A stretch of 63,936 nt of DNA, filler included, from Octopus bimaculoides (taxonomy: Eukaryota), in NCBI RefSeq assembly GCF_001194135.2. It is 7 parts of 5 records of this genome, joined end to end, with 100 filler letters (N's around TTAATTAATTAA, not from the genome) between each part and the next. Parts side by side here need not be neighbours in the genome. Positions count along the whole stretch, not along the records: positions 1 to 22,755 come from NC_068991.1; positions 22,856 to 36,625 come from NC_068996.1; positions 36,726 to 41,936 come from NC_068981.1; positions 42,037 to 47,989 come from NC_069005.1; positions 48,090 to 53,436 come from NC_068996.1; positions 53,537 to 62,328 come from NC_068991.1; 1 more part is not named here. One strand, written 5' to 3'. Each line of letters starts with the position of its first letter. Position 1 is the stretch's first letter. Under the pieces are notes generated by a model that saw only the letters and a program-made list of their open reading frames with translations, was not told the DNA's origin and did not search any database. This document shows, piece by piece, positions 13,663 to 58,133 of the stretch. Both the position numbers and the translations under genes were made by a program.

Positions 13663-13697
13663 GTTTTACGTTTCGTGCATAGCTCTTCTTCGGAAAC
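13663..13697 (-). ncRNA. Degenerate minimal hammerhead
   Basis: Minus strand: GUUU CCGAAGA A GAGC UAU GCAC GAAA CG UA/AAAC. Confidence 0.6.
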
Positions 13698-14879
13698 AGG
13701 AGACATAGGAAAGTCTGAAAGAAAAGGAAGGAAAAAGTCGCCAACAGTCCACGTGTAGTTACATTTTTGAAATGAGCGGAAGTAAATGGACAAAGAGAAA
13801 GTGCTTTCTGGGACAGGAGTATGCGTGAAGAATGGTTGGTATCTGTGTGCGTTCGTTTGTGTGTGTGTATGTGTATGTTTGTGTGGAGGTTTGTCTGTGC
13901 GTGCGTATTCGTGCGAGTATGTGTGTGTATGCGTGCGTGCGCGAAAGGGAGAGGGGTGGTATGTGGTGTGTGATATAGAAATATGGGATATAAAAATTAA
14001 TACAAATAATAAGTAGTACAAATAATACAAATAAGTAGGAATTGGTAAAATAAAACCACAAAGGGAAAAGATATGAACAAATCAGTGGCAGAAATAGTTA
14101 AATAAAAATTTAAAAAATAAAGAAATAAAAAATAAAAAGCAAAGGGATGAAAAATAAAATATAATAAAAATTAAATAAAAAATAATAGATAATAAAATAA
14201 ACATAAAATAAAAAATATAGTATTATACGTACATATATGCATACATACATATGCATACAAACATTCATATACATGCATATATATATATATAATTAACTAA
14301 AAAACGAGAAAAAGACATCAAGAAAAAAAAAAACAACGCGAGGACTTAATGCATACAAAGTATTAATGAGACGCTCAGAGAATCAACGACTATTGAAAAG
14401 GTTGCAAGTCGCAATGAAAACGAGTGGAAATCAGATCGGTGTGTGTGTTAAATTAAGAAGGGACTAAAAGAGAATGACTCTCCCCAGACATAATAGAATA
14501 TGGTTCAACACACGAATTCACATACAGAATCTTGCAAACCACACACAAAAACGAAATTAAATAAAAATAGAATAATAAAATAGATGAAAAATAATAAAAT
14601 GAAATATAAAAAGATAAAAATTTCAAAAAATAAATAAAAATTAAATAAAAATTAAATAAAAAATAATAAATAGATGAAATAAAAGGATCAAAATAAACAA
14701 GTGCAACAGTAACATAAATAAACGAATAAAAAACAAAAGAAATATCCGAATAAAAGAATTAAAAAATAAACGATAAAAATTCGATAAATAAACGATAAAA
14801 GTTGTAAAAAATGAATAAAAATAAATGAGTAAAAATAAGATAGGGTAAAGTGTTGTTTTTTAAGGAAGATGTATGCATT

Positions 14880-15200
14880 ACTGTCTGTGTTGGCCCCTCT
14901 CTTGTTTCAACTCTGCGACGCTTGTCACACCAACATGATACTACTCGTCTTAGTCTGTCCTATCGTTACTACCACAAGAAGTGTTCTGATGAACTGTTTT
15001 TCTTAGTTCCAGATCATTTTGTACCATCTCACTTCACTCGAAGCTCACATTGTCTTCATCCAAATGTTGTGCTTCCAAGAAGGAAGTCTTTCTGCGGTTG
15101 CAGCTTTTTTTCTTTGAACTGTCAAACTTTGGAAGTCTCTTTTATCTCATTCTTTTCTTCCCTCTTATGATCTGAACTTTTTCAGTCTATAGTAAACTCA
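14880..15200 (+). mobile_element. L2/CR1-group LINE 3' ORF fragment
   Basis: LSHQHDTTRLSLSYRYYHKKCSDELFFLVP...TRSSHCLHPNVV...SFF resembles the C-terminal LSHRRxVASLSLFYRYY motif. Confidence 0.6.
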
Positions 15201-15741
15201 TTCCTTTTGTCTTAATTTCTCCTTCTTCATAGACTCTTACACTAAGTGGTTTCCCACCTTGCTTGGGATATTCTAATGGAAAAAAAAATACAACCTGTTA
15301 TTTCACCTTTTCCAAATCGATGCCAGCTTGATATTTCTCACCCAGAAATGACTCTCAGCCTGAAATTACTGTAGTAATACAGGTCTTTGATCTGAGCTGA
15401 GTTCATGCTGCTTACGTTCAGGGATTCCCGTCCCACTAGTTACTCCTCTTCACATCACTATTGTTGCTTTCTTCACCCTTGAGCCGACATTAATCCCTAC
15501 GACCACTCCTTCCTTCCCAGAACGTCGGCGCTCTGGAATTCTTTCCCTGTTCATATCTTAACATACATGCATACATACATACATACATACATACATACAT
15601 ACATACAAACATACATACAAACATACATATATATATACATGCAGACATGCATAGCATCATCACACATACACGCACACACATACACACACACACATACACA
15701 CACACATACACACACACATACACACACACACATACACACAA

Positions 15742-15846
15742 TAAAGTGTCTTGCTCAAGGACACAGCACACAGCCCGGTCAGGGAATCGACCTTACTACC
15801 TCATGATTGTAAGCCCAACGCTCTAACCACTGAGCTATGCGCCTTC
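15742..15846 (-). mobile_element. tRNA-like SINE head
   Basis: Minus strand: ggcgcatagctcagtggttagagcgttgggcttacaatcatgaggtagtaaggtcgattccctgaccggg, followed by gtccttgagcaagacacttt. Related copy at ~59780-59890(-). Confidence 0.75.
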
Positions 15847-17164
15847 ATGCATACATATATTTATGTTATGTGTGTGTGCGCGCGCGCGCACTTAAACACA
15901 CACACACACACACACACACACACACACACACACGCACACAAACATGTAATGTGCATCTGCTTAATGTGTATGGTTTTAAAAGTTTAGCTTTTATTGAACC
16001 ATGATTCAGACTTTGCTTATTCTTCATCTAAAGAAATATTCATACTAAAGTCTGTTAGGCTTCCTTTTCTTCAGGTCTAGTATTCGAATGAAATGGATAT
16101 GAAAGTTAACGAATAAGCCTGAAGAATTACATTGAAAAGTTATAGATTTCAGTAGGAAATAGTCAAGTGCTTTAACTCTTCATATGTTTATAGATTTCAG
16201 CAATGAAAGAGCTGCCGCTTTCCAACTTACCTGTACCTCTCTTTATGTTAATATACATATTCATTTGAAAAGCTTTTCGAAGAGAACGGGAAAGAATAGC
16301 AGGAGATGTCATTCTATGAGAAGATTTCGATATCTGTTTTGGAACCAAGCATATAACTATACAACTTCATCAGTACTTCTGATACTCCAGAGAAAAACCG
16401 GAATGCCATGCACGTCTATATTGTATGATTCGCATAAAGTGAAGGAGCTACAGCTCTGATTGGATAGGTTGGCAGCTAACTAACTGAGGCGTTGGTAGTT
16501 CGAATTTTGTTGCAATCACCTTGGACATCAGTGGACAGGACGCGTAAATTAACTGTAATAAAGTACACAAGAATGGTTTACAAGTAAACCTGGGTGCAAG
16601 TTTAATTCCTGTATATATTCTTCCATACTTTACATGTATAATTTTTTCAACTACAGGCATCAAACCAGAAATTTTAAGGGATGGACTAATCCCCAGTGCT
16701 TGATTGGTACTCATTTCATCGATTGTGACAGAATGAAAGGCAAAGTCGACTTCAACGGAATTTGAACTCAGAAGGTACAGTTGGAAGAAATGCCGTGAAG
16801 TATTTTGCCCAGCAGGGTAACGATTCTAGCAGCTCACCACCTTCATACTGCAATAGAGTTAAATGTGAGTCCATACTCACATTAATTGTTGAAGTTCTGT
16901 ACCGAGAAACTTAAAGGAGTCCACAATCAGTCGTGTCATTCACGTGGTCTTCTAATACAAATCCTGTATGATGAGGACAGGGTTTTAGTCGAACAAATAG
17001 ACCCAAGGACTTTTTAAACCTATTAATTATTCTATCAAATCTCAATTGCAGAACCGCTATGTTACGGAGACGTAAACTTACGAACACCGGTTGTCAAACA
17101 GTGGTGATGGAACAAACAGACACAAAGACACACGCATACACATATACATAGATACATGTTGTTT

Positions 17165-56215: not shown

Positions 56216-56281
56216 CACTATGTAGTTACAATAATATGTCCTTCTACTGAAATGAAATTTCAGTAAATTTTCTGTATCTTT

Positions 56282-56371
56282 GTGTAGCTGAAGATTGCTC
56301 TGCATTTTACATTTAATGTAATGCTCGCATTGCTTAAATAAATGGAGTCGCATGAAACGATCGTACTGCAT
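56282..56371 (+). ncRNA. Type I hammerhead ribozyme, intact core
   Basis: GUGUAG CUGAAGA UUGCUC...GAGUCGCAU GAAA CGAUCG UA/CUGCAU. 6-bp stem I, palindromic stem III, branched stem II. Confidence 0.85.
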
Positions 56372-56416
56372 TAACCTTGAATATCCTTGTTGCTTATTCT
56401 GATATNNNNNNNNNNT

Positions 56417-56630
56417 TCCTGTTTGTTTGCAGTCTTTATTGCACCTGAACATCTGCCACAAACAAAAACTAACTTGCTAGTTAACCTGCCTTTGATGTTG
56501 CTGCACCTCTTATGTGTCCATAGCTTGCACCGGGTACATCTTATAGAGTTACTACCTACTCCTTTTCTACATACTGAGCAGGGCCATCTACCTGAAGGGG
56601 TTTGTGTTTTATCTACCTTCCTATATAAGT
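56417..56630 (-). mobile_element. RTE fragment covering the PHD-like finger
   Basis: WPCSVCRKGVGSNSIRCTRCKLWTHKRCSNIKGRLTSKLVFVCGRC, paralogous to the 27140-27290 region. Confidence 0.88.
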
Positions 56631-58050
56631 ATGAGTGCATGAATGTTTGTGTCTCCTTGTCTTCACATTGTGTGAGTGTTGTAAACGATTGTCCTTGTCA
56701 TACAAGCAGTGTCACTCATTGCTAATATTCTGTGAATACATATCTGGCCATGGGGAAACATTACCTTGCTTGGAAGCAGGTGATGGTTGTCAACAGGAAG
56801 GCCATCCTGTTGAAGGAAATCTGCCCCCAATAAATTTTCTGCTCAATCCGTGCAACCATGGAAAAGTGGATTTTAAAACAACGCCAATCATGAAGACAAT
56901 GATGATGATGATGATGACAATGATGATGGTGACAATGATGGCATAAGTAATATGCTTCATAAATATGTTTACGAACAGGTTAAAGAGCAACTGCTGAAAT
57001 AATACTGAATTTGGAACATGTTGGATGGCTTTCAAAGAAGGAGGCCAGTTTAAACAAAATATCTCTGGTTGCAAAGGCAGTGACATATTTGGTTTTTGTG
57101 GTGCCAAGTCTGGTGCAGTCTGGTTAGAAGGTGATGTGCTATCACATGAAACTTTTGCTAGGTAAGGAAATAAATAAATTTTAGTGAGGAGAGTAAAATA
57201 ATTTGTTAATTAATAAGTGTCTTCTGGATAAGGACACAGCAACACTAAAAGGAGACGAATAATTACTGGTACATACATACATACAAAAATACCCTGTATT
57301 TCAAGAAATCTTGAAATAAGACTGAACAAACATATATATGTATACACACACACACACACACAAGCACGTGCACACATGCGCACACACATACATGTATCCA
57401 TGCATGCCTACATCCATGCATCCATGCATGCATGCATACATACAAACAAACAAACAAACAAACAATTTCATGCATAAAATTTCAGTGAAACTAGTTGCTT
57501 AAAACACATGAGGTAAATTTCAATGAAGTTAGTCTGAAACAAGGAACAGTGGATACAAAAATTTTAGTGAAATGGATAACAAACAGCATTATGAAAACAT
57601 TAGTGGAAAATGGTTACAGGCATTTCTAGAATTTATTACAAGTAATATTTATATACATATAGTTCAGGGTTTGTAAAATTGTGTATTGATAAATCTACTA
57701 GACGATCAAATTTTGATGTGGTCTGTCTGATTTTACAATTGTGAGGCATATTAGCTGTTTCTTAATTAATGCTACTACTACATAAACATTTACAAACAAG
57801 AAAATATACAGCTTATATAAGAAAAATTGTATATTTTACTATGCTACTTTTATAAAACCTGAACATGTCTTGTAATATTGTAATACATAATGATGTAAAT
57901 TGAAAAAATTCCAAAATAAAATGTAAAAATCAAACCATGTTTGAATTTGGTTCACACACACACACACACACACACACACACACACACACACACATATACA
58001 CACACACTTCTGTGTGTGTATGTATGTATATATATATATATATAACAGCT

Positions 58051-58133
58051 ACCTCTGATGAGCACAGGGTTACATAAACGGACTATTACCTAACATTTTG
58101 TCGAATGCCTAGTGCAAAACCAATTGGTAAGAT
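58051..58133 (+). ncRNA. Type I hammerhead motif with G12-to-A core change
   Basis: ACCU CUGAUGA GCACAGG...CCUAGUGC AAAA CCAAUUGG UA/AGAU. Palindromic stem III. Confidence 0.72.

Follow-up and report, generated by a model that had tools for sequence, protein, structure and literature searches.

Type I hammerhead ribozymes of several repeat lineages in a window of the Octopus bimaculoides genome, probably tails of truncated Penelope-like elements

The analysed stretch of Octopus bimaculoides DNA (the window; 63,936 nucleotides, composed of joined genome parts) contains type I hammerhead ribozyme motifs that belong to five or more repeat lineages. Most of these motifs are mutated, and they are probably 3′ end-pieces of 5′-truncated insertions of Penelope-like elements (PLEs). 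The features are listed in Table 1, where sites are named by the position of their C3 base; 13693 and 50078 (both minus strand) correspond to 13663 and 50020 of a preliminary description of this DNA.

Table 1. Hammerhead motifs, repeat units and Penelope-like open reading frames in the window.
Feature	Position	Strand	Characteristics
Family A pLTR-like unit, copy 1	13575..13931	-	Minimal hammerhead C3 13693 to H17 13667; U4 mutated, one stem II mismatch
Family A, third partial copy	14311..14389	-	3′ tail without hammerhead; 77% over 79 bp
Marginal hammerhead-like candidates	16010..16222	+	C3 at 16028 (score 6.7) and 16119 (score 6.4); a single core defect per candidate; null mean 0.62 at ≥6
Penelope-like ORF, 5′-truncated, RT + GIY-YIG	17836..19188	+	Two in-frame stops; Pfam RVT_1 3e-8, GIY-YIG 3.9e-6
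Family B minimal hammerhead, intact	19471..19512	+	C3 19476, H17 19507; 288 nt past ORF stop
Family C, copy 1	31927..32064	+	C3 31949; intact core and damaged palindrome; stem II span 59 nt; 42 nt short of (TA)n
Second Penelope-like ORF remnant	34267..35240	-	Frameshifted; CX4CXXC linker, Neptune/Nematis-like
Family A, copy 2	35880..36232	-	Hammerhead C3 35994 to 35968; H17=G; palindrome broken
Doubtful site D (37449)	37439..37483	+	Core indel-damaged in both halves; no partner
Family E, copy 1	41776..41890	+	C3 41793; core mismatched at two positions; stem I extended; stem II span 34 nt
Compact Hydra-type hammerhead	45617..45661	-	C3 45656, H17 45622; intact core; stem I of 5 bp; palindrome not perfect; score 8.72
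Family F unit	47303..47610	-	Intact hammerhead C3 47504, H17 47437; 8-nt palindrome; 49-nt stem II span; high-copy
Inverted, diverged copy of family F 3′ tail	47598..47747	+	Found by self-BLAST; ~10x lower contig depth
Doubtful site G (50078)	50018..50083	-	Two core mismatches; no partner
Family C, copy 2 (hammerhead intact)	56266..56405	+	C3 56288, H17 56365; 8-nt palindrome; 59-nt stem II span
Family E, copy 2	58044..58161	+	C3 58055; mutation of G12; stem II span 54 nt; palindrome 10 nt; lies within (TA)n

Hammerhead motifs exceed the chance level

A strict type I hammerhead descriptor (intact CUGANGA/GAAA/UH core, perfect palindrome, stem I of at least 4 bp, and stem II of -2 kcal/mol or lower) was passed at three loci in the whole window (19476+, 47504-, and 56288+), whereas block-wise dinucleotide shuffling gave a mean of 0.06 per window and reached three loci in 0 of 100 shuffles. 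With one core mismatch permitted, six loci were found compared to a null mean of 2.04, and this number was reached in 2 of 25 shuffles; since about two such matches per window are expected by chance, lone degenerate sites are weak evidence. Graded scanning of the window retrieved five loci at scores of at least 8 (null mean 0.1) and 12 loci at scores of at least 3. Sites 37449 and 50078 and the copies of families A and E are all missing from these 12 loci, so that the support for families A and E is pairwise homology; repeat pairs within the window were identified by self-BLAST. An Rfam search (E≤10) returned no hammerhead among the best 150 of 181 rows, and the matches there were driven by microsatellites.

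The core is intact at 19476, 47504, 56288, 31949, and 45656 and mutated at 13693, 35994, 41793, 58055, 37449, and 50078. A perfect stem III palindrome is present at 13693, 19476, 47504, 56288, and 58055, and most copies in the window carry core or palindrome mutations. For the intact palindromes of 8–10 nt, the predicted dimer duplexes have energies of -10 to -13 kcal/mol and the monomer hairpins of +2.4 to -0.9 kcal/mol, whereas the predicted dimer duplexes of the 4-nt palindromes are weaker (-1.7 and +1.6 kcal/mol).

About ten type I hammerheads had been described previously, of which eight were supported here; three are intact and five are decayed members of homologous pairs, whereas 37449 and 50078 cannot be told from chance matches. 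A joint family of 47504 and 50078 was rejected (no homology, and no pair with z > 2). The earlier list lacked 45656- as well as the marginal candidates 16028+ and 16119+, and two of its stem III palindromes were likely misread: at 19476 a short form (UA, H17=U) yields a better stem I, and the palindrome assigned at 37449 more likely takes in the site's own stem I strand. The background of the relaxed descriptor would favor the view that every site is a chance match in AT-rich repetitive DNA, and for 37449, 50078, 16028, and 16119 this is a fair reading. For the set as a whole it is refuted by the strict-descriptor shuffles, and the homologous pairs with differing defects, the ORF linkage, and the family F data described below also contradict it, leaving it a negligible probability. 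The proposal of at least five hammerhead-bearing lineages held, with families A, B, C, E, and F being real, as did the view that the motifs are type I hammerheads of the Penelope kind whose stem III is palindromic.

Compact hammerheads and Penelope-like ORF remnants

Among all sites in the window, only 19476 is located in the 3′ region of an ORF for reverse transcriptase (RT) and GIY-YIG endonuclease (EN), on the sense strand of that ORF; the best match of the ORF is an O. bimaculoides protein (77%). The motif has an unpaired base after A9 and a G10.1-C11.1 pair, as in the minimal hammerheads of PMC4209133. A tblastn search with 10 PLE proteins detected just two ORF remnants in the window and no ORF linked to family A, C, E, F, or 45656, in agreement with the earlier remark that most sites lack an adjacent ORF. 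No hammerhead was found downstream of the second remnant (34267..35240). A 14-mer occurs in both the UTR of 19476 and the repeat next to 47303, without statistical significance (score 36, with shuffles reaching up to 46).

The two hammerhead-bearing family A copies share 66% identity over 362 bp, differ in their defects, and retain the unpaired base after A9 and G10.1. A tie between the copy at 35994 and the ORF remnant ending at 35240 was rejected as unproven, with a gap and (TA)n lying between them and no family A copy downstream of the ORF. By their motifs, families A and B are of the compact Penelope/Neptune type. They resemble the minimal hammerheads in the pLTRs of metazoan PLEs (Cervera and De la Peña, 2014; PMC4209133) in the type I fold, the unpaired base after A9, and the 2-nt palindrome, at 19476 also in the G10.1-C11.1 pair and the location downstream of an RT-EN ORF, and in having numerous solo copies that fall into several families within a genome. 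That study reported thousands of solo minimal hammerheads, with several families per genome, and attributed them to truncated PLEs; no cephalopod term was found in one of its two supplements.

Families with long stem II and a Hydra-type site

Stem II distinguishes families C, E, and F from the minimal hammerheads of PMC4209133: it is far longer, with spans of 34–59 nt instead of a compact helix. The pair at its base is U.U in family C and at 45656 and C.A in family F, which thus deviate from G10.1-C11.1. The two family C copies are 85% identical over 138 bp and show 12 differences in 96 nt, of which two are one-sided and two break a pair, with no two-sided compensatory change; the palindrome at 31949 has one broken pair and one wobble. 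A pattern search for family C in viral contigs gave no matches, and a loosely defined hammerhead pattern matched viral contigs at least 120 times, presumably by chance. Homology of the family E copies is supported by a z-score of 8.2 (0 of 2000 shuffles). In the three gap-free copies of families C and E, a (TA)n tract begins 32–42 nt past the end, while 56288 reaches a gap; family F ends 129 nt before (TA)n, and no (TA)n end was seen at 45656, whose graded score compares to a null mean of 0.1 at ≥8.

In sequence, families C, E, and F and site 45656 look like the hammerheads of Hydra-clade PLEs, with a long insert added to stem II in the three families. Hydra-clade motifs have near-palindromic stems III of 7–10 nt, and their stem II frequently starts with a U.U pair; the elements insert at (TA)n and end in a short tail, one of them with a 5′-truncated inverted copy (PMC8557442, Files S1/S2). 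The likenesses to C, E, F, and 45656 comprise the long near-palindromic stem III, a non-canonical basal pair in stem II, insertion at (TA)n, a short 3′ tail, and an occasional inverted 5′-truncated copy. The difference lies in the loop, as loop 2 of the Hydra motifs and the loops of the minimal hammerheads measure approximately 3–10 nt. Loops of 29–35 nt occur in the tables of PMC8557442 only in plant PLE-X1, flagged there as deviating, and the C.A pair of family F is the same as in PLE-X1_cBra. A hammerhead of O. bimaculoides, Hydra-1_Obim, has already been published (Craig et al., 2021; PMC8557442), and its motif is absent from the window. Hydra-clade PLE ORFs carry RWK and DKT motifs and a CxCX5C linker and lack CCHH; no Hydra-type ORF linked to C, E, F, or 45656 was found in the window. 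A search of the PMC8557442 supplement for the motifs of the octopus families was negative, although matching there is weakened by line breaks and cut runs. In the literature covered, PMC8557442 alone was relevant to octopus or cephalopod hammerheads and no PLE variants with long stem II were found, but Lunse et al. (RNA Biol 14:1499) may already list octopus variants or some with long stem II.

Family F is present at high copy number, with more than 100 contigs per run covering the hammerhead positions in three organisms. Its copies share a common 3′ end followed by variable AT-rich flanks (57/49/37 contigs, agreement 0.57–0.59). Majority variants replace G.U by G-C in stem I at 47433 (52/61/44 contigs) and G.U by A-U in stem II at 47493, and none of the 40 variants listed affects a core base; the variant at 47490 would break or shift a stem II pair, barring a partner change among 119 further variants. 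The lowest-energy predicted fold of 47504 hides the core (-24.3 vs. -12.7 kcal/mol).

Adjoining the family F unit is the inverted copy of its own 3′ tail, likely a 5′-inversion of the PLE type. The region 47303–47747 might instead be a MITE that targets TA, is bounded by terminal inverted repeats of roughly 150 bp, and has captured a hammerhead, since it has long inverted arms that each end at TATATTAG and are TA-flanked, and a change of strand from one arm end to the other is seen in some contigs. However, the two arms have diverged from each other, and depth on the left arm is approximately 10x lower than on the hammerhead side, although best-fit assignment of similar arms may contribute to this difference. 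The arm furthermore extends into the 3′ half of the hammerhead, and 5′-truncated inverted copies are a described PLE structure, which together make the MITE very improbable.

Contig depth of family F drops about 10x near 47605, which is also compatible with a defined 5′ end. Families C, E, and F could be short non-autonomous PLE derivatives (~130–300 bp) that have a fixed 5′ end and acquired the long stem II insert themselves, and that rely on Hydra- or Neptune-type PLEs for mobilization in trans; this is a narrower form of the earlier proposal. Besides this step and the high copy number of family F, the similar shortness of both E copies and of both C copies would fit such elements, and non-autonomous elements derived from pLTRs, monomers included, have been proposed (bioRxiv 10.64898/2026.07.22.740005). 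However, the step at 47605 coincides with the inversion junction of this F copy, at least four contigs continue 69–363 nt past it with other sequence that fits element continuation and flank equally well, and 5′ truncation already predicts solo copies. We regard this explanation as rather unlikely.

Animal non-LTR retrozymes (PMC7229834; bioRxiv 10.64898/2026.07.22.740005) are likewise repeats that lack an ORF, carry a type I hammerhead, and have a proposed origin from PLE pLTRs. They form tandem units of 150–450 bp and abundant circular RNA, and the palindromic stem III and their occurrence in a mollusc (mussel; PMC7229834) would be in line with such elements here. In contrast, the window contains neither a tandem array of this kind nor, in the one run inspected, an abundant discrete RNA, and offers solo monomers at best. 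A search for tandem monomers, as suggested earlier, was negative: a hammerhead lies in the unit of 0 of 102 tandem-repeat rows in the window, where many sites abut assembly gaps, and same-family copies are 16–24 kb apart. As the hammerheads never occur in a tandem array in the window, they are not retrozymes as defined. In one cDNA run (6% read; such a library may fail to capture small circles), RNA of family F was low and derived from both strands, amounted to 5.3 reads per 10^4 DNA contig depth compared to 6.0 for the neighboring MITE, showed no pile-up or sharing of ends on the unit, and had no backward-running joints among the best 15 of 253; no RNA dataset covering 47200–47985 was listed. 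Retrozymes are thus an extremely improbable source of these motifs.

Probable truncated Penelope tails and the significance of long stems II

The reading as truncated PLE tails would imply PLE parentage also for families A, C, E, and F and 45656. In the parent element, the hammerhead would be part of either the terminal repeat (pLTR) or the 3′ UTR. In a tandem transcript, the palindromic stems III of two copies would pair, and cleavage as a dimer would excise the element RNA from the read-through transcript. Since reverse transcription would begin at the 3′ end and usually abort, most insertions would retain only the hammerhead and a short tail. Insertion sites would often be (TA)n, an inverted tail copy would sometimes be present, and the solo copies, presumably inert, would decay after insertion. 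A strict scan of the sense strand of 10 distant metagenome PLE loci (21–32% identity) matched a hammerhead in 0 of 10. This result counts against the reading, as do the stem II spans of families C, E, and F, the lack of linked ORFs in the window for A, C, E, F, and 45656, the depth step of family F, its variant at 47490, the hidden core in the predicted fold of 47504, and the family C pair with its missing two-sided compensatory change.

A large uncatalogued family of non-autonomous elements, as suggested in the preliminary description, is unsupported, solo hammerheads having already been attributed to truncated PLEs (PMC4209133). It would be quite a speculative extension, and we consider it improbable, that octopus harbors high-copy non-autonomous Penelope-derived elements with structured stem II inserts of 35–60 nt and strong dimerization palindromes of 8–10 nt that are missed by Rfam and standard descriptors, and whose palindromes serve as a pairing code particular to each family, enabling trans cleavage between dispersed copies.

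This kind of sequence is already known, and the octopus families are added to an existing catalogue. The remaining novelty is the stem II span of 34–59 nt in families C, E, and F. Because it lies beyond published descriptors in these three families, the number of hammerheads counted in animal genomes is probably an underestimate, and complete ribozymes may exist in some PLE families that are catalogued with a “half core”. The role of the hammerhead in Penelope transposition has been called unclear (PMC8557442); if short elements were indeed mobilized in trans, they would provide a clean system for studying it.

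Hammerhead-like sites and their decay

The window contains 56,025 called bases (about 37% G + C), with many gaps and a high density of microsatellites and repeats. A strict hammerhead descriptor, judged against 100 block-wise dinucleotide shuffles, recovered three loci, named here by core base C3 and strand: 19476+ (family B), 47504- (family F), and 56288+ (C2, the second copy of family C). The shuffle mean was 0.06 and none of the 100 shuffles reached three, so that the motif exceeds its frequency in shuffled sequence. A graded scan tolerating two core defects, whose score was devised after the sites were already known, gave five loci at a score of ≥8 versus 0.1 expected (40 shuffles), adding 31949+ (C1) and the previously overlooked 45656-. 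Permitting one core mismatch yields about two chance loci per window in shuffles, and lone degenerate sites therefore require further support.

For the degenerate sites of families A, C, and E this support comes from a homologous partner. The family A copies (13693- and 35994-) are 66% alike over 362 bp, with a third tail at 14311-14389; C1 and C2 are 85% alike over 138 bp; and the family E copies 41793+ (E1) and 58055+ (E2) are homologous with a z of 8.2 (0 of 2000 shuffles). The defect positions differ between the two copies of A and likewise of E, as expected if each copy had decayed independently from an intact ancestor. Sites 37449+ and 50078-, each with at least two defects and without a partner, were left out of the tally. 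All ten positions originally listed as hammerheads are hammerhead-like, but their quality is uneven, with eight supported and three intact. The proposed minimum of five lineages stands (A, B, C, E, and F by descriptor or homology; six counting 45656). An Rfam search of the window contained no hammerhead among the 150 of 181 matches listed. The sites are real but mostly decayed, and represent extra members of an already known hammerhead type.

Penelope-like remnants and surroundings of the sites

Comparison of 10 Penelope-like element (PLE) proteins with the window by tblastn revealed two remnants only (Table), in agreement with the earlier statement that most sites lack an adjacent ORF. The top of four matches to the protein of the first remnant was an Octopus bimaculoides UniRef entry (77% identity); this single match makes an octopus the probable host. 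The 19476 motif lies 288 nt downstream of the first remnant on the same strand; no hammerhead was detectable behind the second. C1, E1, and E2 end at (TA)n, 32-42 nt past the cleavage site, C2 at a gap 40 nt past it, and F 129 nt past it. Ahead of family F lies a diverged, inverted duplicate of the F tail. Tandem monomers, which the preliminary description had proposed to seek, did not emerge: none of the 102 tandem-repeat rows in the window contains a hammerhead, which separates these sites, within the window, from non-LTR retrozymes.

PLE insertions are described as mostly 5'-truncated. Their terminal repeats (pLTRs) bear type I hammerheads designed for dimer action, which are weakly active in vitro and have a proposed role in precursor RNA cutting (PMC4209133, PMC6765202). 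The intact palindromes of 8-10 nt have a predicted dimer pairing of -10 to -13 kcal/mol and scarcely any predicted monomer hairpin, and the predicted fold is near the hammerhead shape for C2 and preferentially buries the core for the F copy. The sites are probably 3' stubs left by PLE insertions whose parents would have been cleaved by the hammerhead as dimers, and the solo copies, with their nearest relatives in the window 16-24 kb away, would be mostly inert. The main rival reading takes C, E, and F to be non-autonomous units whose 5' end is fixed; it is the less probable of the two, the present data being compatible with both.

Features accompanying the hammerhead-like sites (positions along the window)
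Feature	Position	Strand	Remarks
PLE ORF, 5'-truncated	17836-19188	+	two in-frame stops; RVT_1 E 3e-8, GIY-YIG E 3.9e-6
Second PLE ORF remnant	34267-35240	-	CX4CXXC linker
Short repeat of second PLE ORF's end	34290-34260 and 34115-34080	-	~170 nt downstream; possibly partial tandem
Direct repeat, 85%	17566-17648 and 19893-19976		flanks PLE ORF element on both sides
ORF piece	17062-17397	-	near 17566-17648 repeat; no Pfam match; presumably like N-terminus of R4/Dong-type non-LTR elements
Hammerhead-like candidate pair	16010-16225	+	back to back; first's 3' stem I strand overlaps second's 5' strand; marginal scores
Inverted duplication, 191 bp	12789-12979 and 13380-13570		99% complementary; begins directly at 3' end of the first family A copy
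Palindrome, ~840 bp	32731-33568		nested inverted repeats, arms 85-98% (72-98% across repeat list); inner terminus again at ~32090-32120, beside C1
Transposase remnant	8147-9039	-	HTH_32 E 8e-4, under cut-off; assumed mariner-like
Non-LTR retroelement ORF piece, PHD-like finger	27087-27932; 56371-56697	+; -	two copies
Ubiquitin-conjugating enzyme gene exon	63632-63730	+	UQ_con E 4.3e-7; strand shared by families B, C, E
High-copy repeat	47204-47300		distinct; RNA per DNA depth ~5x neighbours
MITE-like element	47745-47982		very high copy; terminal inverted repeats; adjoins family F at TA site

Copies and transcripts of family F

For family F only, three contig sets (organisms A, C, and D) and one RNA run were compared with 47200-47985. 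Summed depth of the F unit averages about 33,000 versus tens for single contigs, a figure of depth and not of copy number. Four of the 40 variants listed lie inside the ribozyme, and no core base is altered among these 40. The 47433 variant has a stem I G-C in place of the window's G.U, 47493 turns a stem II G.U into A-U, 47460 falls in a bulge, and 47490 would break or shift a stem II pair unless a partner change is among 119 further variants. The 47460 majority variant occurs in at least 119, 117, and 111 contigs of organisms A, C, and D, respectively (at most 128 counted).

The copies share a common 3' end with variable flanks (agreement 0.57-0.59), about 33 nt just past stem I are absent from many of them, and depth falls about 10-fold across the inverted arm. 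Several diverged contigs link the 47204-47300 repeat to the F tail, which suggests that a composite was amplified or that a TA target is preferred.

RNA over the F unit was thin and on both strands, without a pile-up of molecule starts or ends (6% of one cDNA run). It amounted to 5.3 reads per 10^4 DNA depth versus 6.0 for the adjoining MITE, RNA and DNA being from different samples. This pattern fits passive transcription of dispersed copies, and small circles are still compatible with it.

Relation to published hammerheads

Many families in one genome are expected: PMC4209133 puts the number of minimal hammerheads at about 2,000-9,000 per genome, spread over several families, with most motifs single and 'probably related to truncated PLEs', and PMC7229834 reports more than 6,000 motifs in 16 families in a coral. 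Families B and A match the minimal form (PMC4209133), B having an unpaired base after A9, G10.1-C11.1, and a 2-nt palindrome; longer palindromes are also present in the alignment of that paper.

C, E, F, and 45656 resemble entries of the Hydra-clade table (PMC8557442) in their long near-palindromic stem III, (TA)n targets, and a stem II whose basal pair is U.U or C.A. Octopus bimaculoides is represented in the table, which also describes one element with a 5'-truncated inverted copy. These sites would work like Hydra-clade motifs and are candidate members of that clade. C, E, and F differ by a stem II span of 34-59 nt; loops of 29-35 nt are tabulated there for plant PLE-X1 only. A bolder reading seems improbable: elements that are non-autonomous, that carry long-stem hammerheads with strong dimerisation, and that escape standard searches. 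The octopus families may already figure in Repbase/Dfam or published supplements. Naiad_Ovul (Octopus) is labelled 'HHR_half_core' in File S1 of PMC8557442, and long-stem hammerheads of the present kind might account for such cases.
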